A stretch of 64,000 nt of DNA, from the IMG/VR virus record IMGVR_UViG_3300021400_000193, positions 7,636 to 71,635 of that record. One strand, written 5' to 3'. Position numbers and translations under genes: made by a program. Every line of letters starts with the position of its first letter. Position 1 is the stretch's first letter. Under the pieces are notes generated by a model. That model was not told the origin of the DNA, did not search any database, and saw nothing but the letters and a program-made list of their open reading frames with translations. The stretch is from a virus (Duplodnaviria > Caudoviricetes). This document shows, piece after piece, positions 4,092 to 63,814 of this stretch.

Positions 4092-6098
4092 TTACAAATC
4101 AACTATTGTTTCTTCCTTGTTTTCCGTTTTAAGATGTTTTTCTTTATTTTGGTCAAACCATGAAACATCCAAACCTTTTAAACGAAGTTCTTCGATTTTA
4201 GAAAGGATATAAGAATTGCGTTCTGAGGAAGAACATTTTATATAAGTGTGTCCATAAATTTTAGATTTAGTATTCACTCTGCGATGTAATATTTCAAACC
4301 ATTCAAAATTAAAATGAAATTCATTCGTTTCAATACAACGAAACATTTCTGAATTTTTAGCAAGAGATTGTTTTAAATGACTCATGTATTTTATATCGTT
4401 TTCATCAATATTTCCTACTAATTCTTTCATATATTTTACAAATGAATATTTTTCATGAAAATAATAACGCATATGTTTATAAATTCCATTCTCATCAAAT
4501 TCACTTGATAAAATCATTTCAACATTATTTTCAATCATACAGTCATATTTTTCTTGCCAACTTTTCTTACGAAAATACGGTTTTCCATTTTCATCAAATT
4601 GAATATCACCTTTAATTTCAACCAATTTTCCATCTACCATAAAATCAACTTCATATCTTCTTTTCTTTCCAGTAGAGTCTAAATAATATAAATTTAATGG
4701 ATGATGTTTAATATCATGATTATGGTCTTTCATATAACAATAATAATATGCTTCTGCTTTCGAATCAAATTCCATGTTATTTAATTCTCGAACATAAACT
4801 TTATTTTGCCTTATACTAGGATACTTATCCATAAATACTTTCATCTTATCAGCGAATTCATAAGTATAATATTCACCATCAAATTCTTCAGAATTAGGTT
4901 TGAAATATTGGAGATAATTACTTAATTTATTTCGTGATATTTTTAGATAAATAGCAAATTTATTAAATGTTAAATGAGTTTTCTTTTTTAATGCCAATTT
5001 TCTTTGTCCATCTAAATATAATTTTAATATTTTTCTACTCTCATTATCATAAACATTTATATTTTTATATCTTTTAGGATTTAAGTTTAATTTATTACTT
5101 TTGATTGCGTTGGTTATCACATTAACAGAAACATTAAATTCTTTACATAATTTAGGCAACGTTAATAATTCAGGTTTTATTATTTCAGATATAACATTCA
5201 AATCTAATGCTTTAATAAAATTAAAATCTTCTCTAGTTATATAAAATATATTATGAATTTTTTCGACATTTATTTTATAGTGTGATGTCAATTTTAATAA
5301 ATTTTTAGTTGTTAAATTAAGAATATTGTTTAATTCTATAATTTTAATAAGACCATCTTCATTTATTTTATATGTTGAATATATTTCTTTATTATTAGTC
5401 AATTCTATTAATTTTAATTTAACCGATTTTGAACAAAATTCCAAATCTCCATATTTAATTGTATCTAAGTTATAAGTATTTATTACATCTTTTATTTTTT
5501 CTCGGTCTATGTGAAATTCTTTACTTAATTCACTAAGACTATAGCAATTATTTTTTATTTTAAATTCATCAACTTTAATGTTTACTTGATTTTCAAATTT
5601 TTCTTTTAATTTATCAGCATATTCATAAGTATAATATTTTCCATCAAATTCATCTTCTGTAGGAGGTAATTGATTTAATAGTGTATTTAATCTATTTCTC
5701 GAAACTTTTAAATATTTGGATAATGCGAATTTTGCTAATTTATTATTATTTATAGGTTGGTATTTGTTTTCATTTAAAAATTTTCTTAATACTTGTTCGT
5801 CATTTTCATTATAAAAAGAAAATCTACCTAAAACTAATGGATTGAATTTGATTTTATTATCATTATTTCTTCGTCTAACCCAATCAAAAGAAACATTACA
5901 TTTTTTACATAAATTATCTAATGTTGTGTGATTTTTATAAAATTCAGCAAGTTGTAAATATGAGTTATAATTTATACTAAAATTTCTACCATCTTTGGAA
6001 TATTCTATACCTAAATATTCTGATACTTTACGAATAGAATCCATACTAATTTTCCAATCTTTGGAAATTTCTTTAATTAAAAATACATCTTTTTCCAT
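4092..6098 (-). CDS. free-standing homing-endonuclease-like protein: repeated HTH-like units plus PD-(D/E)XK nuclease
   Basis: internal repeats (KFA..L..SRN.L...L.....EEFDG.YYTYE.ADK); nuclease motif FDSKAE...YEVDF..DGKLVEIKG. Confidence 0.75.
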   Translation of the reverse strand: MEKDVFLIKEISKDWKISMDSIRKVSEYLGIEYSKDGRNFSINYNSYLQLAEFYKNHTTLDNLCKKCNVSFDWVRRRNNDNKIKFNPLVLGRFSFYNENDEQVLRKFLNENKYQPINNNKLAKFALSKYLKVSRNRLNTLLNQLPPTEDEFDGKYYTYEYADKLKEKFENQVNIKVDEFKIKNNCYSLSELSKEFHIDREKIKDVINTYNLDTIKYGDLEFCSKSVKLKLIELTNNKEIYSTYKINEDGLIKIIELNNILNLTTKNLLKLTSHYKINVEKIHNIFYITREDFNFIKALDLNVISEIIKPELLTLPKLCKEFNVSVNVITNAIKSNKLNLNPKRYKNINVYDNESRKILKLYLDGQRKLALKKKTHLTFNKFAIYLKISRNKLSNYLQYFKPNSEEFDGEYYTYEFADKMKVFMDKYPSIRQNKVYVRELNNMEFDSKAEAYYYCYMKDHNHDIKHHPLNLYYLDSTGKKRRYEVDFMVDGKLVEIKGDIQFDENGKPYFRKKSWQEKYDCMIENNVEMILSSEFDENGIYKHMRYYFHEKYSFVKYMKELVGNIDENDIKYMSHLKQSLAKNSEMFRCIETNEFHFNFEWFEILHRRVNTKSKIYGHTYIKCSSSERNSYILSKIEELRLKGLDVSWFDQNKEKHLKTENKEETIVDL

Positions 6099-6167
6099 AA
6101 CGAGTTCTCCTATAAATTATCATATGCTATTACCGATAGCAATACAAATAGTTAATATTTTAAAATA

Positions 6168-6245
6168 AAAAAGGAACGAAGATTTGTGTTTTAGAGAACT
6201 CATTAAAGCACACGACTCGGTAAATCGTCATCTTCGTTCCTTTTG
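6168..6245 (-). ncRNA. structured dual-loop antisense-like RNA element, copy A
   Basis: 16-bp outer inverted repeat enclosing two hairpins; loops complementary to the RBS (6101-6109) and leader hairpin loop (6130-6136) of 4092..6098; U-tract follows on the minus strand. Confidence 0.75.
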
Positions 6246-6265: not shown

Positions 6266-7669
6266 TTAGCAAAATTCTACACCACAGAACGGACAAGCAG
6301 TTTCAATTCCGTCCGCCAACTCGTGATTACACTGAGGGCAAAGAGCAGTATCACCTTTGAACTTAGGTGAACCATCTTCATTTACACCAATGATAAATGA
6401 ACGGTCATTGTCTGTGAGTTTATCTACGAATGGAAGAACTGTACTCTTCAAACTCATAGGGTCAAACTTGGCAATTTTAGCAACTTTTGCTACCTTCTGA
6501 ATTGGAGCGGTTGGTGTAGGTTCTTCAACCTCACTCGGAAGTTCATCATCTTCTGAAGATTCTGTTTCAACTGTTTTCATAGAATCAAAATTTGGTGTTT
6601 CAGTTGAAGTTGTTTCTTCTGTAACTTCTTCATCTTCTGATTCTACTTCTGTAGAAGTATCTTCTGTTGATTCGGTTTCCTTTGTTTCGGATTTCTTGGC
6701 TTCCCATTCTTTCTTCTCTTTTTCAATCCATTCGGCAAAATCACTCTGAAGATTAGTACCAAAATCAATATCTGCTTGTTTGATGAGTTTACCAAGCACC
6801 TTGTTTACATAAGATGCTGATGTTGGACGAGAAATAAAAGGTATATCTTCCAACTTATATTTCTCATAATTTTCCTCATCTTCTGTAAGATAATTCATGG
6901 TTACTTTATTTGGGTCTAAACCAATCTGTGAAATCTTTGACTTTTCTTCAGGTGAGAAAATCTGAATCCAAGATTCACCAAGTTTCTTACTTAAACGCTT
7001 AACAACAACATCAAATTCGTCATACATACGATTAAGAGCAGTACACTGTTCATCGAAGATGTTGTTATAAAGACTTGGTTTGATTCCGTATGTTGGATAT
7101 TCAACGGTCTTTCCATCAACTTCCTTAGTTGTAGAATCCCAACAAAGAAGTTTTGTATGCTTATTTTCAGCGCACCAATTATCCGTCCTGTCAATACAGT
7201 TAAACAGATAAAATGTATCTGTCATCATGCCTTTTTCTGAAGCCAAACAATCTTCTGCTTTCTTACCGTTGTGGATAAATCTTTCGAATGAAGGTTTACC
7301 TTTATTGTCGAAAATTTTTGTCTTATTTTCTTTGTCGTATTTGTACTTACCAATAATTGTTCGCCATAACTTATTTACAGGATGGTCACGGTCCTCAGAC
7401 ATGATAATTGTAGTCCATTTATCATCATCAGTTTTAACGAACGCACGTTTTACAATAAGAGGGTCATAAACCGATTCACGCATGAGTGGTGAATTCCCCA
7501 CGAGTCTTAGAATTTTAGGAGTATCTTTTTTTAAGACGCACACCTTAAAATCAGGAACATCTTCTTTTGGAAAATCCCCATGTGATTTAGCCTGTTCGGC
7601 TTTCTTTTTTGCTTCTTGGAACTTCGCCAAGCGAGCCTTTGCCTTCTCTTCAGCACTTAACTCTGCCAT
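6266..7669 (-). CDS. putative single-stranded DNA-binding protein (gp32-like) with acidic linker and C-terminal Zn ribbon
   Basis: likely start MAELS with GAGGAG RBS; LRLVG and FNCIDR beta motifs, long acidic tract, CPQC..CPFC; replication context. Confidence 0.55.
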   Translation of the reverse strand: MAELSAEEKAKARLAKFQEAKKKAEQAKSHGDFPKEDVPDFKVCVLKKDTPKILRLVGNSPLMRESVYDPLIVKRAFVKTDDDKWTTIIMSEDRDHPVNKLWRTIIGKYKYDKENKTKIFDNKGKPSFERFIHNGKKAEDCLASEKGMMTDTFYLFNCIDRTDNWCAENKHTKLLCWDSTTKEVDGKTVEYPTYGIKPSLYNNIFDEQCTALNRMYDEFDVVVKRLSKKLGESWIQIFSPEEKSKISQIGLDPNKVTMNYLTEDEENYEKYKLEDIPFISRPTSASYVNKVLGKLIKQADIDFGTNLQSDFAEWIEKEKKEWEAKKSETKETESTEDTSTEVESEDEEVTEETTSTETPNFDSMKTVETESSEDDELPSEVEEPTPTAPIQKVAKVAKIAKFDPMSLKSTVLPFVDKLTDNDRSFIIGVNEDGSPKFKGDTALCPQCNHELADGIETACPFCGVEFC

Positions 7670-10995: not shown

Positions 10996-11125
10996 AATTC
11001 ACCATCCTATTAATATAATTTATCAAAGTTTAGGTCTACAATATATTCACCTAAAATTTTTACATAATTATCATATCTGCAATACTGATATAAATAGTTA
11101 ATGTTTATATAAGATAGTTAAAAAA

Positions 11126-11192
11126 GATTGAAAGGTTAGACAGAACTAGGATATTCTATCAATAGGTTGACCGCCTATCATTCCTTTCAATC
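11126..11192 (-). ncRNA. structured dual-loop RNA element, copy B (no cognate leader hairpin found)
   Basis: outer stem gattgaaagg/cctttcaatc, two inner hairpins (8-nt and 7-nt loops), U-tract then TAACTAT on the minus strand. Confidence 0.7.
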
Positions 11193-12372: not shown

Positions 12373-12402
12373 AATATATCACAACTAAATGTAATCTGTC
12401 AA
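12373..12402 (-). promoter_or_regulatory. sigma70-like early promoter
   Basis: TTGACA-N18-TATATT; similar TAATTTT(A/T)CTTGACA heads near 34216, 38143, 49050, 51475 and 62816. Confidence 0.7.
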
Positions 12403-12518
12403 GTAAAATTATTAAAAAATTAAGCAACTTGATTGATTCTTGCAAGAAATTAAATTGAATTTCAAAACAAACAGAGGTTGCTTGTAAATATAGTTATTTA
12501 ATTTTAACTATTTGATAT

Positions 12519-15277: not shown

Positions 15278-17497
15278 TTATTCATAAATTACTTTCGTAG
15301 TTCCACAATCATAAATTCTATATATCTTATTTTCTTTCATTATTTCATGTTCCGTTTTATTTGAATCATAAAATTTCAACTCACCTCTTTCAAACATTTT
15401 TTTAATTTTATTCTTTCGAAAATGAGATTTATGAACTCGTCTACCATTTACAACATATGAATAAGAAGGACTATTTTCTTTAACAATCTTAAATCCACTC
15501 TCAATATATCCTTTTCCATTAAACCACGCTTTGTATACATAACTTGTGATTGATTTATATTCAATAAAATTAGAAATATGTTTCATTAACTTGCTGAATC
15601 CACCAACAACTTGAGTGTTTAATTTTGTAACCATTCTCGTAAGTTCTACATTCCCATCGTGCCAACCTTTCTTATTTATACAAACGCATTGTACAAGTTC
15701 ATCATTAAAAGTAAGACCCAAATATAAATCACCATAAGCAAAACCTTGTAAATGATTTTCATCGAAGAATATCTTTGCTTGGTCTTTTTCAATTTCCTTT
15801 ATTTGACATTTACGAGCAAAAATCTTTTCTTTGTAAACACCAAGTCTGCTTGCAATCATAGATTTCACAATTTCTTTATGTTCCAACCAATCATCTTCAA
15901 AGACATGAATTAAATCTATCCCTTTTTCATTACACATATTCGTTTTTACAAGATGATAATTTTTATCAACATGATTTTCATCATGCCAATGCAAACCGTT
16001 ATATTCTATTGCGAGTTTCATTTTAGGAATATAAATATCTAATTCCTTTGGTGAAATTATTCTCTTTGTATTTTCCATAACTTCATCGGAACATATTGAT
16101 TTTACAAAGTCAACTAATTCTTTTTCAGAATAAGACTTTCCACACGCATCAGTTTTTGAAAAGAAATCAGATAAGATTGGTAAATCCGATTCATTTATAT
16201 AATAATGTTCATCTCGATTAAAACGCACAACGGATATATTTAATCTTTCAACCGCATTCAATATGGTTTTGTCATGTCTATTAAATTTCATTGATAATTC
16301 GTCAACTGTTAATAAATTCTGAGATTTTGCAAAATTTATTTTATTTTCTTTTGTAATTTTCACTTTGTTCAAAACTTCGTTACTATATAACGGATGTTCA
16401 ACACCATAATTATTCAATAAAGTTTTTCTTGCTTTATCTTTAACTTCTTTTGTTAATATGGGATATTCCACTCCCCATTTTTTCAAATTAGTATTTTTTG
16501 TTTTTTCTTTTACTTGTTTACTTTGAGTAGCGTGTTCTTTTCCATATCTTTCAAGATTTGTCTCTTTAATTTTATTTTTCACATTTTCATTTTGAGAAAT
16601 AAATTCTACACCATAAACTTTGAGATTTGTATATTTTCGTTTTTCTTCAATTTCTTTTAACTCTGCTTCGGATTTAGAATTCCAAGTTTCAGCACATTTT
16701 TCACCATTAGTATAAGTTTCATCTCCATATAATTTTAATTTTGTAGATTTAATTTTATTTACAAATTCTTGAATTTCTTCTTCTGATTTATTATACCAAG
16801 ATTGTTTCATTTTATTAGCGATTTCTTCATTCTGTGTTGGAACTTCTACACCATATTTCAATAAACTAGTTTCTTTACGTTTATTTACAATTTCTTCGAT
16901 TTCTTTATCTGTTTTTGATAACCAAGTTTGAGATGATTTTTCCGAATTATTATAAAGTTCATCTCCATATCGTTCAAATTTTGTTTTCTTTGCTTTTTCA
17001 GCACTAGATTTGTGTGCTTTTTCTACAGAACCAAAATGTTTAATTTGAGTTAATTTATTCTTTTCAGAATTATTATAATTTTCATCACCATATCTTTCCA
17101 ATTTAGTCGCTTTACTTTGTTCAAGTCTTGATTCTTTATTATTTTCCCAAGATTTTAAGTTTGATTCTGAAATCTTTTCTTTATTAACATAATTTGGGTC
17201 TCCATATCTTTCCATTTTTGTTTTGCGAGATTTTTCATTCTTTTGTTTATAAAAATTTTCAAGACTTCCGTATTTTTCAATACGACTCATATCTCTAAAA
17301 ATAATTTCTTTATTTGGAGTATTTTTTACAAAATCTTTAATTTGATTTACTTGTTCATCAGAATAAACATCTACTTCTTTATGTGCCTTTTCATGATACA
17401 TTTTTTTAGATTCTAATTTAAGATATTTTATTGTATTTTTAACTGTAGAATCTGATAAATTTAATAAACTACAAATTTCCTTTTTAGTATAATTCAT
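15278..17497 (-). CDS. Hef-like free-standing homing endonuclease with (K/E)TxLERYG repeats
   Basis: many T.LE(R/K)YG repeats; ELDIYIP..LAIEYNGLHWH nuclease; IFARKC...NHLQG...IYDCG tail; start MNYTKK preferred by RBS. Confidence 0.85.
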   Translation of the reverse strand: MNYTKKEICSLLNLSDSTVKNTIKYLKLESKKMYHEKAHKEVDVYSDEQVNQIKDFVKNTPNKEIIFRDMSRIEKYGSLENFYKQKNEKSRKTKMERYGDPNYVNKEKISESNLKSWENNKESRLEQSKATKLERYGDENYNNSEKNKLTQIKHFGSVEKAHKSSAEKAKKTKFERYGDELYNNSEKSSQTWLSKTDKEIEEIVNKRKETSLLKYGVEVPTQNEEIANKMKQSWYNKSEEEIQEFVNKIKSTKLKLYGDETYTNGEKCAETWNSKSEAELKEIEEKRKYTNLKVYGVEFISQNENVKNKIKETNLERYGKEHATQSKQVKEKTKNTNLKKWGVEYPILTKEVKDKARKTLLNNYGVEHPLYSNEVLNKVKITKENKINFAKSQNLLTVDELSMKFNRHDKTILNAVERLNISVVRFNRDEHYYINESDLPILSDFFSKTDACGKSYSEKELVDFVKSICSDEVMENTKRIISPKELDIYIPKMKLAIEYNGLHWHDENHVDKNYHLVKTNMCNEKGIDLIHVFEDDWLEHKEIVKSMIASRLGVYKEKIFARKCQIKEIEKDQAKIFFDENHLQGFAYGDLYLGLTFNDELVQCVCINKKGWHDGNVELTRMVTKLNTQVVGGFSKLMKHISNFIEYKSITSYVYKAWFNGKGYIESGFKIVKENSPSYSYVVNGRRVHKSHFRKNKIKKMFERGELKFYDSNKTEHEIMKENKIYRIYDCGTTKVIYE

Positions 17498-17552
17498 AAT
17501 ATCCTCATCCTTAATTTCATTTCTGACCATTGGTAGTGGTCACATTAAATAG

Positions 17553-17619
17553 TAAGAGTTAGATAGAAACGGATGAAGTAGTTTCTATCAAATGTGCTAC
17601 CAACACATCTGTCCTCTTA
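17553..17619 (-). ncRNA. structured dual-loop antisense-like RNA element, copy C
   Basis: loops complementary to the RBS (17503-17510) and leader hairpin loop (17530-17536); TTGATT-N17-TACTCT promoter at 17653-17625. Confidence 0.75.
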
Positions 17620-17690: not shown

Positions 17691-18899
17691 TTATTCTTCG
17701 TTCGCCTTTACATTCCAAATCGGCTTTATAATTTTCAAAACTTCACAAGTATCTCCAATAGTTTCAAGAATCTGTTCCATAGGTTTGTAAGCCATGGGTG
17801 ATTCATCTATAGTTCCTACACAAACAGAAGTTGTGTAAACATCTTTCATTGACTTCTTGAAATCTTCCATTTTAAGAGATTCTTTAGCCATAGAACGTGA
17901 CATAAGACGACCTGCACCATGAGGAGCAGAACAATTTCTATCTTCGTTTCCTTTACCTTTTACAATTAAAGAACCGTCAGCCATGTTCATAGGAATAATT
18001 GCAATTTCATCTTTGTATGCTGAGATAGAACCTTTACGAATAATCTTATTTTTAATATCTACATAATTATGAACTGTACAGAATTCATCAAGAATATGTT
18101 TCTTCTTAATATTCAATGCTTTACAAATTTCATCTTGCATAGCCTTTCTTGACCAATAAGCAAAATTTTGTGCAATTTCCATATCATGTAAATATCCTTT
18201 CAAATCTTCACCTTCAAGATATGCAAGTTCATTTGGAACTTTTTCAAATTCTAGTTTATCAAGTTCAGACTGAATTTCTTTTTCACGACCTTCTCTCTTA
18301 AGTCGTTCAATGATTTCAGTTTTTTCCTTGATGTGATTTTTATGATATTCGATTGCTTTATTCTGCCAATATTTACAAACTTCAATTCCTAAATGTCGAG
18401 AACCGCTATGAATTACAAGATAATAATTCCCTTCTTTATCGATATCTAATTCGCCAAAATGATTTCCTCCACCTAATGAGCCAAGAGCAAGTAATTCTTT
18501 TTCTTTGTTAATTGGTGTAATAATATTATCGAGATTTATATTTTCGCAGAATTTATGTTTTGTACTTCTGTGTGCCATTCCCATAGGAATGTTCGCTCGC
18601 CATACTTTATCCAAGTTTTTTAAATCAAAATGAAAATCTTTAGATATTTTAAGAACTTGCATTCCACAACCAATATCTACTCCAACCAAATTTGGAACAA
18701 TTTTATTAACAATTGTTTGAGTAAAACCAATTACACATCCACTTCCTGCATGACAATCTTCCATAATTCTGATTTGTGAACCTTCTGAAAATTTCTGATT
18801 CAACAAATTCAAAATCTGTTTATAACACGCTTCTTCCAACTTGTCATAATCATCTACGAAAACTTTAGCATTGTTATATTTTCCTTTAATTTCAATCAT
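17691..18899 (-). CDS. rtcB: RtcB RNA 3'-phosphate ligase
   Basis: DCHAG, VGVDIGCG, GSLGGGNHF, HSGSR, HNY, HGAGR, DESPMAYK. Confidence 0.95.
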   Translation of the reverse strand: MIEIKGKYNNAKVFVDDYDKLEEACYKQILNLLNQKFSEGSQIRIMEDCHAGSGCVIGFTQTIVNKIVPNLVGVDIGCGMQVLKISKDFHFDLKNLDKVWRANIPMGMAHRSTKHKFCENINLDNIITPINKEKELLALGSLGGGNHFGELDIDKEGNYYLVIHSGSRHLGIEVCKYWQNKAIEYHKNHIKEKTEIIERLKREGREKEIQSELDKLEFEKVPNELAYLEGEDLKGYLHDMEIAQNFAYWSRKAMQDEICKALNIKKKHILDEFCTVHNYVDIKNKIIRKGSISAYKDEIAIIPMNMADGSLIVKGKGNEDRNCSAPHGAGRLMSRSMAKESLKMEDFKKSMKDVYTTSVCVGTIDESPMAYKPMEQILETIGDTCEVLKIIKPIWNVKANEE

Positions 18900-23932: not shown

Positions 23933-25141
23933 TCATCTTGTTTTAAACTGTTCTACATAATTTTTACCATATTTTTCATCTACAATTTTCATAATTTTAA
24001 TTATATCTTTCTTTATAATGAGTTTCACATTATTTTCTTCCATACATTTTTGTTTACACATATCCCATTCACGATTTTTCATTTGTTTAAGATTTCCATC
24101 TTCATCTAACAATTGTCCACCTTTAATTTCAATATTTTCACCATTTACTAAGAAATCACATTCATAACGATGAATATTACCATTATATTTATATTCAAAA
24201 ATCTTGCCTTTAGTTATATTATTTTTAAGAATATATTTATTATAAATATAAAAATAAACTTCCCATGAACTATGAAATTCTAATTTCTCAAACATATATT
24301 GATGCGTTACTGATAAAGTTCCGTGATTTTCAATTCTACTTTTCATTGATTTTTCTGAATCAGTAATTGAACGTTTACCATATTTCTTTAATTTGGTTTC
24401 TTCTATTTTCTTTTGTCTTTCATCAGTACAAGATTCTTTTACTTTTTCAGAAATCTTGTTTCTCGCTTCATTAGAACGAGAAGGATTATCAACTCCATAT
24501 TTTTTCATACAAGTTTGTTCTTGAAAAAATAATTTTCTTTCTTTTGCCGAACCAAATCCTTTAAGAAAATCTTCAAATTTTTCTTTCTGCTCTTCATTAA
24601 TGAAAGCAAATTGATGAGATGGTTTATAAACTTTAATTCCTAGATGTTCAAGAATCGCTAACGCAGTATTTTCACAAAAATCATATTTTTTACCAAGTTT
24701 ATCAATAATATTTCTTAATGGAATCCAACCATCTTTAGTATATTTCAAATCTCTTAATTCCGCACGATTAAACGTTGAGATACTTTTCATAAATTCATCA
24801 AATCTTTCACATTCTTCATTAGAATAAACATATTTGAATTCAAGATTAACATGTTCGCATTTTATTCTAAATTGTTTTTCATTTAGATTATATTTTTTAA
24901 GCAAATCTAAAAGAAGAGTACCTTCGTAAAAATTTTTAATATTATGTGATTTAATATATTTTATCTGATTCGTTGTATAAGTAGAAACAAATTTTTCAAT
25001 AATAGGAATGTTCTCAATGAGAACACATTTAGCATTATTTTCGATTTCAATAGGAATGTTCAAAAATTCAAGATAAGAAATAAACTGATAGAAATCAATT
25101 TTGTATTTTTCTGAAAGTTTTTTAACAGAGATATAATCCAT
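23933..25141 (-). CDS. homing-endonuclease-like PD-(D/E)XK protein
   Basis: TCMKKYGVDN repeat; FHSSWE...YECDF..NGENIEIKG, paralogous to the nuclease domain of 4092..6098. Confidence 0.75.
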   Translation of the reverse strand: MDYISVKKLSEKYKIDFYQFISYLEFLNIPIEIENNAKCVLIENIPIIEKFVSTYTTNQIKYIKSHNIKNFYEGTLLLDLLKKYNLNEKQFRIKCEHVNLEFKYVYSNEECERFDEFMKSISTFNRAELRDLKYTKDGWIPLRNIIDKLGKKYDFCENTALAILEHLGIKVYKPSHQFAFINEEQKEKFEDFLKGFGSAKERKLFFQEQTCMKKYGVDNPSRSNEARNKISEKVKESCTDERQKKIEETKLKKYGKRSITDSEKSMKSRIENHGTLSVTHQYMFEKLEFHSSWEVYFYIYNKYILKNNITKGKIFEYKYNGNIHRYECDFLVNGENIEIKGGQLLDEDGNLKQMKNREWDMCKQKCMEENNVKLIIKKDIIKIMKIVDEKYGKNYVEQFKTR

Positions 25142-25277
25142 AAATTCCTCCTACAATGCACTAAGTTCCGCTAAGAAATGCACCATAGGTTTTAGCGGAA
25201 CTTACGGATTATTTCTTACATATAATATAGTAGATTTTATAGAAAATGTCAAGATAATTTGAAGTTTATTTGAACCT

Positions 25278-25550
25278 TTATTTTCCTAAATATAATCCCA
25301 AAACATCACTCTTGAATAAATATATTACTTTAAGTTTCAAAATACCATTATAATCCAAGCATACTTCCATTAAATTATCATAAATCCAAATGTGCTGAAT
25401 ATTCAGTTTTGTTATCGAAACGATATCTTCTATAAATGTTTCCAAATCATTTACATATTTTATCTTTTTAAAGTCAAATTCCAAATCTGCTAGTTTTTCA
25501 TCATAACATTCAAAATCTTCAAATTTAATATCTTGATTATAAAGTTTCAT
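25278..25550 (-). CDS. hypothetical protein
   Basis: 90 aa with RBS. Confidence 0.6.
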   Translation of the reverse strand: MKLYNQDIKFEDFECYDEKLADLEFDFKKIKYVNDLETFIEDIVSITKLNIQHIWIYDNLMEVCLDYNGILKLKVIYLFKSDVLGLYLGK

Positions 25551-34166: not shown

Positions 34167-34267
34167 AAAAATAAATCTCCTTTATATTAATATAATAACA
34201 TAAAGAAGATTGTTTTGTCAAGTAAAATTATCAAAAATCTATTTCTTTGATTCACCAGTCAATTTAT

Positions 34268-43984: not shown

Positions 43985-45064
43985 TTATTTTTTGAATGGT
44001 TTACAAATTTTATCAAATCTGTTCCAAAAGTCATTTTCCTTTTTAACAAATGTTTTGTCGTCAGCAATTGCCATTGCTTCCCATGCATCAAGAAGTTCTT
44101 CATCTTTCTTTGCGATATCAAGAACTTTTTTGAAGTTTTCTTTTGCAACATAATCTTCTGATTCCAATGTTTCTTCAAGCATGTCTAACATATCACCAAG
44201 TCCATCTACTTCTTTTTCTGTAAGGGATTCTGTGATTTTATTATCTTTTAATATATTTTCAAAAGCATAATAAATTGCATCTTTTTTGAAAGATACATCG
44301 TATTCTAACAAATCACCTTCACCTTTAAGTACATCAGTTACAACATAAGCATATTCTTTAGGACTAACTTCACCGAAAATAAATGTCTTGTCTTTTCCGT
44401 TATTTTTTACAATTACATTTTTCTGAAAAACATGTTCGATAAATCCATACTTGGTATTATATCCGAAATGGAGATTATCTACATCAACATAAGGTTTTAT
44501 ATCATCTTCCGATTCATTCAATTCTGTCTTATATTTGTTGATAAAATCTTCAATTTCATCGTCACTGTAGTTTGTGCCAAGTTTGTTTAATTCAGCCTTG
44601 ATAAACTCGAATCTTTCATGTTCATCTGTGATTTCTTGTGCTTTATCCCAAATCTCCGTTGGTAAAAAGTCCAACTTCTCTTTCAGTGTAATCAATGTTC
44701 CTTTTGAAACAATGTTTCCTTCAATAAGGTAATTTTTTGTAAGTGTTATAGTTTTCATTTTGTTATTCTCCATTAATTTCTTAAAATCTTCAGCCGTATA
44801 AGGTACACGACTTTTCCATACATTGATTTTATGTTCTTCGTTATCAGAATTTGACACCATGCTTAAATATGTTCCCACCTTTGCAGAACGACATTTATTG
44901 TTATTTTCACCATCCTTTGCTTTAATGCGTCTACATACTTTTTTAATATCTTCGATATCACCTTTTACAAAATATGAATTCTCACCATCAACAGTGATTC
45001 GCCAATTATTATCATCTGTATGAGCGATTGTTATAGGAATCAATCTTTTATTTTCATCTGCCAT
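43985..45064 (-). CDS. putative internal head polyprotein
   Basis: TAACTAT upstream; LKE/LNES/ITESLTE linkers; internal MKTITLTKNYLIEG motif. Confidence 0.5.
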   Translation of the reverse strand: MADENKRLIPITIAHTDDNNWRITVDGENSYFVKGDIEDIKKVCRRIKAKDGENNNKCRSAKVGTYLSMVSNSDNEEHKINVWKSRVPYTAEDFKKLMENNKMKTITLTKNYLIEGNIVSKGTLITLKEKLDFLPTEIWDKAQEITDEHERFEFIKAELNKLGTNYSDDEIEDFINKYKTELNESEDDIKPYVDVDNLHFGYNTKYGFIEHVFQKNVIVKNNGKDKTFIFGEVSPKEYAYVVTDVLKGEGDLLEYDVSFKKDAIYYAFENILKDNKITESLTEKEVDGLGDMLDMLEETLESEDYVAKENFKKVLDIAKKDEELLDAWEAMAIADDKTFVKKENDFWNRFDKICKPFKK

Positions 45065-45128
45065 AAAAATTTCTCCAATTTACAAAATAAATAGTTAATA
45101 TAAATTATATAGTTAAATTATTACTCTT

Positions 45129-46454
45129 TTACAAATTTATTTGAAAATATTTTTTAAGTTCTTTTTCGATAGTTTTATAATTTTTAAGTCTTAAAAGGTT
45201 AATTCCATTATTTTTACAATAATTCGTTTTAATTTCATCATGTCTTTGAACATAATTTAATTTTTCTTTTGCTTGTTCATCCGTCATTTCTTTACTTCGC
45301 TTTATGGGTTTAAAATGACCTTCTCCATCAAATTCTATACATAAATTATAAAGTGGTATGTAAAAATCAAACGGTAATTGTCGTTCATCTTTACAATCAT
45401 TAAATTTCTTTTGTTCTTCAAATTCTATTTTACATTCTGTTAAAAATTTTCTAATTGCAATTTCACCTTTATAATTATTACATTTTGGACATCCTTCTCC
45501 GCTTACATGATTGTTAGGTTGTTGTGGAAAATCACCATGTTTTGGACAAGTTATAATTACATCTGTATACATATTTATATAATTTACTTTAGAATAATCA
45601 TATGTTCCGATTCCGTGAACTTCGTTCGCTCTTTCTATAAATTCTTCTAAAGTCAAATTATATAAAGTTGCTTTCTTTTCTTCCCAACAATCAGGACAAC
45701 CTGCACCTTTAAAATGATTACTAGGTGTTTGTGGAAAATCACCATGTTTTGAGCAAGTTATAATTACCTCAGTTTTATAATTTGTGTAAATAACCTTTGA
45801 ATAATCATAAGTTCCTTTACCATGAATTTTATTCGCCCTTTCTACAAATTCTTTTAAATCTAATTTTTGAGTTCCGTAACAAATAGGACAACCACTACCA
45901 TTTAAATGACTGCGAGGTTTTTGTGGAAATTCGTAAGGTTCATCATGATTTGGACAGATTATAATCACCTCTGTATCATTATTTACATAAATAACCTTAG
46001 AATAATCATATCTTCCTTTATCATGTATCATATTGGATTTTTCTATAAATTCTTCCAAAGTTAATTTTAATTTTTCATGACATTTTATATTTCCACAAAG
46101 TTTACAACCTTTGCCACTCAAATGATTACTTGGTTTTTGTGGAAATGGTTTATGACCCTCAACTCTACAAATTATTTCCACATCAATTTTTGCTTTTACA
46201 TAAATCACATTTGAATAATCATACCTATTGCCATGTTTTCTTAAAGCCTTTCTGATGAAAGTTTTTGTTTTGTCGTCTTTGTTAAAATATCTTTCATTAA
46301 TAATTTGTTCGATTTCTTCTTCAGATAATTTTGGATATTCAACGATTTGATTTTTCAAATCTACATTTTCAGCAGAAACACATTTTTTACAATTACAATT
46401 TTCTTGATTAATTTTTGTCTTATCATAAGACATCATTCGATTCATTAAATTCAT
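45129..46454 (-). CDS. homing-endonuclease-like protein with Zn-binding repeats and a Vsr/DUF559-like nuclease
   Basis: four repeats of FI.(K/R)A...H...YDYS.V.Y......V.I.C..H..FPQ.P..H..G.GC..C; LPFDFYIP...IEFDGEGH. Confidence 0.82.
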   Translation of the reverse strand: MNLMNRMMSYDKTKINQENCNCKKCVSAENVDLKNQIVEYPKLSEEEIEQIINERYFNKDDKTKTFIRKALRKHGNRYDYSNVIYVKAKIDVEIICRVEGHKPFPQKPSNHLSGKGCKLCGNIKCHEKLKLTLEEFIEKSNMIHDKGRYDYSKVIYVNNDTEVIIICPNHDEPYEFPQKPRSHLNGSGCPICYGTQKLDLKEFVERANKIHGKGTYDYSKVIYTNYKTEVIITCSKHGDFPQTPSNHFKGAGCPDCWEEKKATLYNLTLEEFIERANEVHGIGTYDYSKVNYINMYTDVIITCPKHGDFPQQPNNHVSGEGCPKCNNYKGEIAIRKFLTECKIEFEEQKKFNDCKDERQLPFDFYIPLYNLCIEFDGEGHFKPIKRSKEMTDEQAKEKLNYVQRHDEIKTNYCKNNGINLLRLKNYKTIEKELKKYFQINL

Positions 46455-46528
46455 AAATCTAATCTCCTATAAGATAATTTTAATTTTTAAGTCATCGTCA
46501 CTGACTTCATATTAAATAGTTAAAAAAA

Positions 46529-46592
46529 GAGGTGTGATTGAGTGAGATTAGTAACTCAATCAACGTATAGGGTGACGACCTATACTCACCTC
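46529..46592 (-). ncRNA. structured dual-loop antisense-like RNA element, copy D
   Basis: perfect stems; loops complementary to the RBS (46459-46466) and leader hairpin loop (46495-46501); U7 tract. Confidence 0.8.
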
Positions 46593-46611
46593 AAATAATC
46601 AAATAGTTTAT

Positions 46612-46884
46612 TTATGCCGACTTTAAAACTAATTCCTTAAATTCTTCAAAATCTTTTTTTGCGATAAATGTTCCATCAAGTTCCAAGTCTTCAAAAGGTT
46701 CATTTACATCGATAACATATTCATCGAATGTTTCTTGGTCTAACCATTCTACTGCAAATTTTTTAACAGATTTATTATATAAAATGGAAACATAATCCGA
46801 AATAGCATATTCAATTGTATCATCAAATTCCATAACAAAATTTGAATCGTCAATACCAACATCAATCAAATCTAATTTTTCCAT
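46612..46884 (-). CDS. hypothetical protein
   Basis: 90 aa, AAGGAG RBS. Confidence 0.65.
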   Translation of the reverse strand: MEKLDLIDVGIDDSNFVMEFDDTIEYAISDYVSILYNKSVKKFAVEWLDQETFDEYVIDVNEPFEDLELDGTFIAKKDFEEFKELVLKSA

Positions 46885-48968: not shown

Positions 48969-49076
48969 AATTTTATTCTCCTATATACTAAAGATAGTTA
49001 ATATAAAAAATCTCCTTACGATTATTATAATATCATAAGGAGATTTATCTGTCAAGTAAAATTATCAATTATTTAA

Positions 49077-51353: not shown

Positions 51354-51516
51354 AATTTTATTTCTCCTTTTATTAAAAATAAATAGTTATGTTTTATTTA
51401 ATATATTTTCTTAAAAGAATTCTACAATCTTCTTCTCTTCAAGATAGTTATAAGATACACGAAAACAAACCATTTGTCAAGGAAAATTATCAATAAATTT
51501 TATAACTATTTATATT

Positions 51517-63293: not shown

Positions 63294-63542
63294 TTGAACG
63301 GTTTGATTGAAGAATGCGGAATTATAGATTTAAAAACTTATCCTACGGGTACTCAAACATACAAATTTAATATCATATTTACACAAAAACCAACAGTAGC
63401 GATTACTATAGATACTTCAAGTTATGATGATAATTCAACTCATTTTGTACAAGTTCACAATGTAACAGAAACAAGATTTCAAATTAAAAGACCTGAAACA
63501 AGTGGAACTTGGTTATTAAATTATATAACAATTGGTTACTAA
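63294..63542 (+). other. start-less tail-fibre tip cassette (gp53-like C-terminal domain)
   Basis: NGLIEECG...F...FT..P.V...NYITIGY*; no ATG or RBS. Confidence 0.7.
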
Positions 63543-63561
63543 TTCGTAATAATACAAAGAG

Positions 63562-63814
63562 TTAGTAACCAATAGCCTTCCAAGTATAAGTTCCCCAAGT
63601 TGGAACTGCATAATACTGAAAATTTTGAGTGGTGATATAACTAGGAAACATACGAACTTGTATCGTATCTCGCTGGTCAGCGGTAGCACTATTTCCACGT
63701 TGAGGGTGTCCTATTATAGTTGGATAATTATTAGAAAAATTAATTTTAAGATTAACCGTAGTCCACCCTTCTGTAGTTGGAGTTTCAAATGCCCATTGTT
63801 CAATCAAACCGTTC
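63562..63814 (-). other. start-less tail-fibre tip cassette, inverted
   Basis: NGLIEQWA...F....P.I...WKAIGY*; shares 5' 16-mer and 3' 12-mer with the + cassette. Confidence 0.72.

Follow-up and report, generated by a model that had tools for sequence, protein, structure and literature searches.

Homing endonuclease genes are the commonest selfish genes of large phages. To our knowledge, their restraint is understood in detail for only a few T-even examples, all of which rely on a plain hairpin. The insertion sequences IS10 and IS200 shield their transposase from read-through, either by fold-back inhibition or by a left-end terminator combined with a stem-loop at the ribosome-binding site (RBS). 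Protection in these elements consists of simple local hairpins, without a kissing loop or an exchangeable specificity carried on a loop. Loop-loop helices of ~7 nt are the first, specificity-giving contact in OxyS-fhlA, S. aureus RNAIII-rot, ColE1 RNA I/II, and R1 CopA/CopT. Two-site kissing and plasmid antisense regulators place one contact at the RBS, and single loop changes create new specificities. Regulators of the OxyS, RNAIII, RNA I, or CopA type are transcribed from another genomic locus or from the opposite strand, and we know of none among these four systems that is a component of a homing-endonuclease cassette.

According to the part of PMC2988022 that deals with T-even endonuclease genes, sequestration of the RBS silences transcripts that started upstream, while an internal late promoter gives translatable RNA. 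The same part describes cassettes, from T-even phages and Aeh1 mobE, in which terminators and promoters of the neighboring genes travel along (PMC2988022). The c4 antisense RNA (immI) of phages P1 and P7, which forms the Rfam C4 family, is, in the portions of the P1 record and papers that describe it, a 77-nt structured RNA encoded on the same strand as, and directly upstream of, its target icd (NC_005856; PMC5320573, PMC12197685). Its targets are a2 (7 nt) and b2 (8 nt), the latter reaching the icd RBS (NC_005856; PMC5320573). The upstream element confers specificity, the other occludes the RBS, and differences in these elements define heteroimmunity (PMC5320573, PMC12197685).

We analyzed a 64,000-nt stretch (the window; positions 7,636 to 71,635) of the IMG/VR phage record IMGVR_UViG_3300021400_000193. 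It holds a forked RNA module in four copies, A to D. The minus strand is the coding strand of all genes around copy D, where the RNA is read from 46592 to 46452 and comprises the following features:

46529..46592, minus strand: forked module, copy D, an outer stem around hairpins 1 and 2 (fold and covariation)
46592-46587 with 46534-46529, minus strand: outer stem (sequence and ViennaRNA fold)
46585-46579 and 46571-46565, minus strand: stem of hairpin 1 (sequence and ViennaRNA fold)
46572..46578, minus strand: hairpin-1 loop UCGUCAC (7 nt), the kissing or specificity loop, complementary to 46501-46495
46562-46554 and 46543-46535, minus strand: stem of hairpin 2 (sequence and ViennaRNA fold)
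46544..46553, minus strand: hairpin-2 loop UACUAAUCUC (10 nt), the anti-Shine-Dalgarno (anti-SD) loop, of which 8 nt (CUAAUCUC) pair with 46466-46459
46522..46528, minus strand: U7 tract directly 3' of the outer stem, a likely intrinsic-terminator tail
46509..46521, minus strand: AACTATTTAATAT, presumed promoter of the endonuclease gene between module and leader (motif counts and conserved position)
46489..46507, minus strand: leader hairpin AAGUCA-GUGACGA-UGACUU, whose loop (46501-46495) is complementary to that of hairpin 1
46459..46467, minus strand: Shine-Dalgarno (SD) region GGAGAUUAG, target of the anti-SD loop (complementarity)
45129..46454, minus strand: 441-aa homing-endonuclease-like gene (phrog_559 'HNH endonuclease', E 5e-76; phrog_9084 'homing endonuclease', E 6e-23)

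A sequence-only reading of this stretch had proposed a 64-nt, dual-loop RNA with fully Watson-Crick stems, and the coordinates bear this out: the module spans 64 nt, both ends of the outer stem included, and all three stems consist of Watson-Crick pairs. Both loop pairings that it had put forward are also perfect, with UCGUCAC and the leader loop GUGACGA complementary at 7/7 positions and CUAAUCUC of loop 2 complementary at 8/8 positions to GAGAUUAG (46466-46459), which overlaps the GGAG core. The ATG of the endonuclease gene follows at 46454-46452. The SD of copy D has its complement in a hairpin loop 75-90 nt upstream, across the U-tract and the leader hairpin. ViennaRNA folds copy D exactly as described, with a minimum free energy of -24.6 kcal/mol (z -5.14) that none of 200 shuffles reached. 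Loop 2 against its own SD region gives -9.3 kcal/mol, a value reached by 25 of 2000 shuffled loops. The U7 (46528-46522) adjoins AACTATTTAATAT (46521-46509), as the claim that it abuts TAACTAT had stated. The terminator-like features at this site are a 6-bp, G+C-rich outer stem that closes a three-way junction, and then the U7; a simple sigma-70/terminator scan flagged neither a promoter nor a terminator at D, its terminator rule being blind to forked stems.

The remaining copies of the window fold like copy D in prediction:

6096..6240, minus strand: copy A, hairpin-1 loop (6223-6217) complementary at 7/7 positions to the leader loop 6136-6130; z -4.10
11120..11192, minus strand: copy B, an orphan module (comparison with the related locus L088); z -4.93
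17495..17619, minus strand: copy C, hairpin-1 loop (17603-17597) complementary at 7/7 positions to the leader loop 17536-17530; z -3.37

In copy A, the anti-SD loop pairs with 8-10 nt at the SD, a T6 follows the module, and the ATG at 6098 starts a 668-aa gene with weak NUMOD1/HTH matches. Copy C has no U-tract, and the ATG at 17497 starts a 739-aa homing-endonuclease-like gene. Its anti-SD loop measures 10 nt and, like that of copy D, begins with UAC, a resemblance that the earlier reading had rightly pointed out. The predicted folds of copies A and C close two extra pairs within loop 1. A search of IMG/VR found no relatives of the endonucleases from copies A and C, so these two copies lack direct comparative support. 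Window-wide, there are 10 perfectly complementary 7-nt loop-loop hairpin pairs, whereas 30 dinucleotide shuffles gave between 1 and 7, with a mean of 3.5. Of these 10, five belong to copies A, C, and D, and the other five look like chance; one match, at 63506/63595, is no module and sits next to a long inverted repeat resembling a terminator.

Among the described systems, c4 resembles this arrangement in having two short elements that are complementary to two sites, one upstream of the RBS of the following same-strand gene and one at that RBS. The loop differences between copies here also recall the c4 elements that define P1/P7 heteroimmunity. The architectures differ, however. The predicted fold of c4 has a long outer stem and a small tetraloop hairpin, with b' in a hairpin loop and a' in a junction strand, whereas both elements of copy D are in hairpin loops. 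The order of elements is nested in c4 (b'-a', then a2-b2) but crossed in copy D (loop 1-loop 2, then leader loop-SD). The c4 target a2 does not lie in a hairpin loop on a conserved stem, unlike the leader loop here. Moreover, c4 is released by RNase P and controls the antirepressor operon of a temperate phage, whereas here a U-tract and a promoter-like motif lie between the RNA and its target, and the target is a homing endonuclease. No Rfam family matched the window at the gathering score. Relaxing the threshold to E 10 in 46380-46700 and to E 5 in 20 related loci brought up neither C4 nor another family, the only hits being chance-level snoRNA and miRNA matches.

In the problem posed and in layout, the locus is close to I-TevI, I-TevII, I-TevIII, segB, and Aeh1 mobE, with the promoter here being a presumed one. 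Those genes carry a single contiguous hairpin that contains the RBS, whereas here the anti-RBS element forms the loop of its own hairpin, which is an arm of a three-way junction. A second, loop-loop contact with the leader hairpin is also peculiar to this locus, as is a U-tract in most units, through which the inhibitor can be a separate RNA. With IS10 and IS200, the module would share a pairing of terminator and RBS occlusion that guards a mobile element's own nuclease or transposase gene.

To find out how far the two pairings are conserved, we aligned 17 D-type units drawn from IMG/VR, metagenomes, and the window itself. Not a single cell of the kissing helix is unpaired (100% pairing), and in six of its seven pairs both partners vary. 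Pairing reaches 99% in the outer stem and 92% in the leader-hairpin stem, where both partners vary in five of six pairs. Pairing in the anti-SD helices amounts to 72.7% and 82.2%, with compensatory changes, and these lower figures partly reflect misalignment. The structure as a whole is 92.3% paired versus 80.0% in shuffles, a level that 0 of 500 shuffles reached, and controls in which the partners were slid gave 28-43%. This covariation is decisive evidence that the pairing exceeds chance. It also strongly supports the two-loop scheme with exchangeable specificity loops that had been proposed from copy D. G-U pairs occur in the stems and in the anti-SD helix, which indicates that the structure forms in sense-strand RNA.

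Conservation is distributed very unevenly over the module: identity is 0.52 in the kissing loop versus 0.96 in the outer stem. Within the kissing loop, the first position is invariant, the next two are nearly so, and the last four are the most variable. The 17 units contain 13 distinct kissing-loop pairs. Copies A and C and L004, L021, L066, L088, L154, L165, and L182 add further perfect pairs, and in all we read no fewer than 20 distinct loops, every one of them with a perfect partner. The anti-SD loop changes in step with the bases around GGAG or, in L155, L165, and L195, in step with the start codon itself. Cognate loop duplexes have predicted energies of -5.5 to -9.1 kcal/mol, and non-cognate duplexes reach -5.1 kcal/mol at best. 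A T-rich tail follows the outer stem in 15/17 D-type units (copy D and 14 of the 16 others, from the sequences as read), and short or absent U-tracts were seen in copy C (none), L067 (4 T), and L082 (3 T). At these three, the module would have to act in cis, a terminated trans-acting RNA being unlikely. In the leader alone, the SD of several units is predicted to pair partly with codons 8-13 (mean unpaired probability 0.12-0.83), and so the module is perhaps not the sole brake.

Pattern scans added further units, with some unit counts made by reading the sequences directly. A scan with the D-type outer-stem pattern returned seven stretches, five of them already known and two (L061 and L062) GC-rich chance matches. 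The leader pattern matched 12 stretches and yielded one new unit, L048; L050, L052, L054, L055, and L056 are unrelated gene junctions. The C-type junction pattern matched 65 stretches, 15 of which passed the fold filter. We accepted L154, L155/L174, L165, L182, and L195 and left out L151/L156/L176/L181, L152/L194, L173, L183, and L201 as chance or doubtful matches.

The gene downstream of copy D is homing-endonuclease-like by its phrog matches and is optional at its site. It contains four internal repeats of about 200 nt each. In a relative, G002, the flanking genes of sites D and A are adjacent, with neither endonuclease gene nor module, giving two empty sites; in L080, the same site is occupied, and the loop code is a different one. 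By this sequence context, the module is the presumed 5' control part of a homing-endonuclease cassette that is mobile and free-standing and is carried by an uncultured phage of the rumen. Genes linked to the module include phrog_559, phrog_9084, and phrog_3339 matches, and in other phages the module precedes GIY-YIG and HNH/NUMOD3 genes. Among metagenome loci, we found it in 20 of the 22 whose endonuclease match begins at residue 1-10 and, in the same scan, in none of the other 58. The endonuclease family occurs in 1027 records of cultured phages, where the matches listed begin at about residue 38-66, and the copies in phiKp_21 and FpV4 leave no room for a module.

Two further sets of promoter-like motifs flank the cassette:

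46601..46608, minus strand: promoter-like AACTATTT motif, ending 8 nt upstream of the copy D module
45085..45119, minus strand: two AACTAT motifs, 3' of the endonuclease stop codon

Between the U7 and the leader hairpin of copy D lies the promoter-like motif TAACTATTT, the position of which is conserved in the aligned units. TAACTATYT occurs 24 times in the 71.6-kb record; 20 of these occurrences are non-coding and within 120 nt upstream of an ORF on the same strand, and two lie in coding DNA, which accounts for 86% of the record. The motif is also found ahead of the tail sheath and tail tube genes. From its intergenic, orientation-specific placement and its location at the tail genes, we presume that it is a promoter. 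In 13 of the 22 distinct contexts read, a comparable ACTAT-type motif precedes the module by 5-17 nt, and the empty site of G002 has retained one between its two flanking genes. The AACTATTT motif is probably a resident promoter behind which the cassette inserted, and the two AACTAT motifs at the other end would provide the resident gene downstream, at 43985-45064, with a promoter again.

We consider it likely that the copy D module is a two-loop lock on endonuclease production, acting in cis and probably also in trans. Most likely, it serves to repress endonuclease translation. The module would fold as a three-way junction that presents two loops. Loop 1 would kiss the 7-nt loop of the hairpin with which the endonuclease leader begins, providing speed and specificity, and loop 2 would cover the SD region, keeping the 30S subunit from binding and the endonuclease from being translated. 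Most transcription arriving from upstream would be halted by the outer stem and U-tract. RNA begun at the TAACTATTT-type promoter between module and leader would be without the module, and the lock would on this account act in cis on read-through transcripts. For action in trans by a terminated RNA of ~70 nt, we see about even chances: such an RNA, started at the upstream promoter-like motif, would be complementary to promoter-proximal leaders, as P1 c4 is to its target. Constant repression in trans is hard to rationalize if both flanking promoters fire simultaneously.

An ordinary forked terminator of the upstream gene, with loop complementarities that are chance or an AT-rich by-product, would explain why U7 directly follows the outer stem. 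Short matches are abundant in AT-rich genomes, as the five chance-like loop-loop matches elsewhere in the window illustrate. Such an origin does not account for at least 20 different loops that are each perfectly matched, for pairing that neither shuffled nor slid controls reproduce, or for the module being missing at empty sites while the upstream genes remain. The covariation in 17 units refutes it, and we give it practically no credence. It is improbable, too, that the pairing governs the fate of the RNA rather than ribosome binding, either through cleavage or decay of the endonuclease mRNA or through stabilization of the 3' end of the upstream mRNA. The leader hairpin does sit at the presumed 5' end of the endonuclease mRNA, and kissing complexes of known antisense systems are often substrates for double-strand-specific RNases. 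Yet helices of 7-9 bp are short for double-strand cleavage, and loop 2 always aims at the SD or the start codon, across endonuclease families, which points to translation initiation as the controlled step.

Insulation in cis alone, as in T4, is a possible but less favored reading. Here, the module would combine a terminator with an anti-leader that acts on read-through, RNA from the internal promoter would escape, and the short RNA would be functionless. Units poor in U-tract (C, L067, and L082) can work in cis alone, and every aligned unit has a promoter-like motif between module and leader. A contig from an RNA library covers 46413-46659, a weak hint that may stem from DNA. This is moreover the established scheme for I-TevI, I-TevII, I-TevIII, segB, and Aeh1 mobE in the part of PMC2988022 that treats them. 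One hairpin would suffice for such insulation, yet a second, fast-evolving kissing contact stays perfectly matched in spite of its low identity (0.52, against 0.96 in the outer stem), and fast-evolving matched loops are typical of the specificity determinants of trans-acting antisense RNAs. From the T-rich tail in 15/17 units and the upstream motif in 13/22 contexts, a short terminated RNA is to be expected, and the c4 RNA of P1, built on the same logic of 7 + 8 nt, is trans-acting.

With the two-loop lock as the preferred reading, the module is a distinct, widespread RNA device with strong covariation and no Rfam match. It travels with several unrelated endonuclease families (phrog_559 type, GIY-YIG/NUMOD3, and HNH-like/NUMOD3) and would be only the second natural family with a c4-like, same-strand, two-site logic. 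The units form a compact natural set of presumed translational repressors, in which the predicted duplexes between cognate loops surpass those between non-cognate loops in strength. Their two exchangeable loops make it possible to test control in cis versus in trans, the specificity of the loop code, and RNA interaction between cassettes in co-infection.

A bolder proposal, which we hold to be rather unlikely, is that the module is a free, trans-acting, programmable anti-endonuclease RNA, with a short loop code proper to every cassette and with loops that diversify fastest owing to encounters of related phages in co-infection, in an RNA-based immunity or arms race around homing. If so, a module already resident, even an orphan like copy B, would shut off any incoming endonuclease that has the same code and protect the genome from cutting. 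Endonucleases would escape by a change of code, in an arms race parallel to P1/P7 heteroimmunity. The loop of copy B found no leader-hairpin partner in the window (five matches versus 2.68 expected). At this copy, a 94-aa ORF replaces the endonuclease gene and leader, and homology to the intact L088 cassette stops right after the second AACTAT motif.

Copy D, a forked module ahead of a homing-endonuclease-like gene, is confirmed as a genuine, conserved RNA device carried by homing-endonuclease cassettes; all of the stems, loops and complementarities assigned to it in the sequence-only reading were found in place. The loop of its first hairpin (loop 1) pairs with a leader hairpin loop to form a kissing helix, and that of its second hairpin (loop 2) is an anti-SD. 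The window has a G+C content of 29% and carries most of its genes on the minus strand; its parent IMG/VR virus record (71.6 kb) is estimated by CheckV to be 41% complete.

Elements of copy D and positions of the other copies in the window
46612-46884, minus strand: 90-aa ORF, its stop codon just before the copy D elements
46608-46601, minus strand: AACTATTT motif, upstream of the module
46592-46529, minus strand: module, 64 nt
46528-46522, minus strand: U7 tract
46521-46509, minus strand: AACTATTTAATAT
46507-46489, minus strand: leader hairpin
46467-46459, minus strand: SD region
46454, minus strand: ATG of a 441-aa ORF
6240-6096, minus strand: copy A
11192-11120, minus strand: copy B
17619-17495, minus strand: copy C

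For copy D, ViennaRNA gives this fold as the minimum (-24.6 kcal/mol, z -5.14), and 0 of 200 shuffles were as stable. Copies A, B, and C share its forked shape (z -4.10, -4.93, and -3.37, respectively), with loop 1 narrowed in the predicted folds of A and C, and the sequence differs from copy to copy. Loop 1 (7 nt) of A, C, and D is a perfect complement of a 7-nt leader hairpin loop, and loop 2 of these copies pairs with the SD region over 8-10 nt; copy B lacks such a partner in a leader. Of the downstream genes, that of D matches phrog_559 "HNH endonuclease" (E 5e-76), that of C matches phrog_3339 "homing endonuclease" (E 2e-117), and that of A has weak NUMOD1/HTH matches only. A 94-aa ORF that follows B matched nothing. 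A 252-nt RNA-library contig, whose source may be DNA, spans 46413-46659. Separately, one contig of RNA-library run X18 matches the module only (46521-46592) and has unlike sequence on both sides, placing a D-type module in another genomic context within that sample.

Relatives of endonuclease D in IMG/VR bear the module with loops that are different yet matching (L002/L003, L004/L005, L025, L021, and L048). A profile search of metagenome contigs gave 80 loci, and the module is present in 20 of the 22 whose protein match begins at residue 1-10. Eighteen of these modules came from automated scanning for perfectly paired loops; those of L065 and L080, with a 9-nt leader loop, were recognised by reading. 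The scan detected no dual-loop module among the remaining 58 metagenome loci. Three loci (L140, L141, and L083) carry a simpler relative, with one loop pairing beside the SD. No close relatives of copies A and C were found in the collections searched.

We aligned 17 D-type units with MAFFT and counted pairs, treating the two long-range contacts as pseudoknots. Every cell of the kissing helix is paired (100%), and six of its seven pairs have changed on both sides, none on one side only. Over the whole structure 92.3% of cells are paired versus 80.0% for shuffled controls, of which 0 of 500 attain that level, and sliding the partners lowers pairing to 28-43%. Conservation is lowest in the two kissing loops (pairwise identity 0.52 versus 0.96 for the outer stem), which occur as 13 distinct pairs across the 17 units. 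A single compensated change separates L078 from L098. Cognate loop duplexes have energies of -5.5 to -9.1 kcal/mol, whereas the best non-cognate duplex reaches -5.1 kcal/mol and most lie above -3.5. G-U pairs in the stems and the anti-SD helix assign the structure to the sense-strand RNA.

A B/C-type conserved-junction pattern retrieved units in unrelated phage contigs, before GIY-YIG/NUMOD3 genes (L154, L165, and L182) and before NUMOD3 HNH-like genes (L155/L174 and L195). The second loop is directed at the start codon in L155, L165, and L195, and the bases around that codon covary with it. Across endonuclease families, the target of loop 2 is constant, either the SD or the start codon, and this constancy points to control of translation initiation by the module. 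Such control might operate in cis, where read-through transcripts from upstream would hold both partners and be silent, and RNA begun at the internal promoter would be open to translation; passages of PMC2988022 describe this scheme for I-TevI, I-TevII, I-TevIII, segB, and Aeh1 mobE. It might also operate in trans, where the upstream promoter-like motif and the U-tract would yield a terminated RNA of ~70 nt that could meet the leader of any transcript. The two possible settings are compatible with each other.

For action in trans, the nearest precedent is c4, the antisense RNA of phages P1 and P7. Annotated in the P1 record are a 77-nt RNA and, immediately before icd, the sites a2 (7 nt) and b2 (8 nt); in c4, according to the reviews PMC5320573 and PMC12197685, b' occludes the RBS and a' provides specificity. 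The folded P1 region differs from the module in topology and has the opposite element order, and the Rfam C4 model did not match the module. We therefore treat the module as an analogue of c4, not a family member. Full-text literature on homing endonucleases and RNA control yielded no description of such an element; the relevant passages of a 2025 review of phage small RNAs, which includes c4 and the cyanophage antisense RNA CfrI, hold nothing resembling it. The element is a new variation on an already known control logic.

The module is part of a mobile endonuclease cassette. In G002, a 160-kb relative, homologues of the genes flanking sites D and A adjoin each other with neither endonuclease gene nor module between them; at site D a single TAACTATTT motif separates the two genes. 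The same site in L080 is occupied by a cassette with another loop code. Site B holds an intact cassette in L088 and G002. Window copy B is ~98% identical to L088 through the module, the homology ending right after the second AACTAT motif, and has the 94-aa ORF in place of leader and endonuclease gene, which identifies it as a recent orphan. In G002, the homologue of window gene 43985-45064 (G002 137666-138416) gives a tblastn match in two pieces ~320 nt apart, which suggests an insertion, intron or frameshift there.

The 71.6-kb record contains TAACTATYT 24 times: 20 occurrences are non-coding and at most 120 nt ahead of an ORF on the same strand, and 2 lie in coding DNA, which accounts for 86% of the record. 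For the 44 occurrences in G002, 31 fall in the upstream non-coding class, the remaining corresponding counts being 5 and 8. The motif lies before the genes for tail sheath and tail tube, none was seen ahead of the DNA polymerase gene, and small genes are preceded by another repeated motif with TTGACA; from this distribution we infer that TAACTATYT is a middle- or late-class phage promoter. Aligned units have one TAACTATYT-type motif between module and leader. Upstream of the module, a related motif is present in 13 of 22 distinct contexts and a TATAAT hexamer alone in 4, either ending 5-17 nt before the module on reading of the sequences. Reading also showed a T-rich tail behind the outer stem for 15 of the 17 D-type units; L067 and L082 have a short one, and copy C has none.

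The TTGACA motif (~39 nt; 12384-12422, 34203-34241, 49037-49075, and 51462-51500) has, on the minus strand, an A/T-rich upstream part, precedes small ORFs, and probably represents the phage's early, host-type class of promoters. At 48969-49076 (minus), a strong hairpin whose loop contains the -10 region of a TTGACA promoter is followed by a T-run and directly by a AACTATCT motif. Downstream of another TTGACA-type promoter, a long leader hairpin (25139-25283, minus) has an apical part complementary to the next gene's SD region; its architecture is unlike the module. A perfect 15-bp inverted repeat at 63546-63590, terminator-like, lies between converging reading frames. An RtcB-type RNA ligase gene (17691-18899) sits directly upstream of copy C, and its G002 homologue, 88% identical, has another genomic neighbourhood.

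Endonuclease D contains four tandem repeats of ~200 nt (45480-46226; DNA identity 63-80%) encoding repeated Cys-rich, treble-clef-like (DUF4379) units, and repeat number varies among its relatives (381-516 aa). Its coding start holds a conserved inverted repeat (46417-46431, minus; codons 8-13, MSYDK region). Predictions for several relatives have this repeat either folding into a separate hairpin or paired with the SD region, and it might act as a second translational control layer. Pairing of the SD with codons 8-13 is predicted for the leader by itself in some units.
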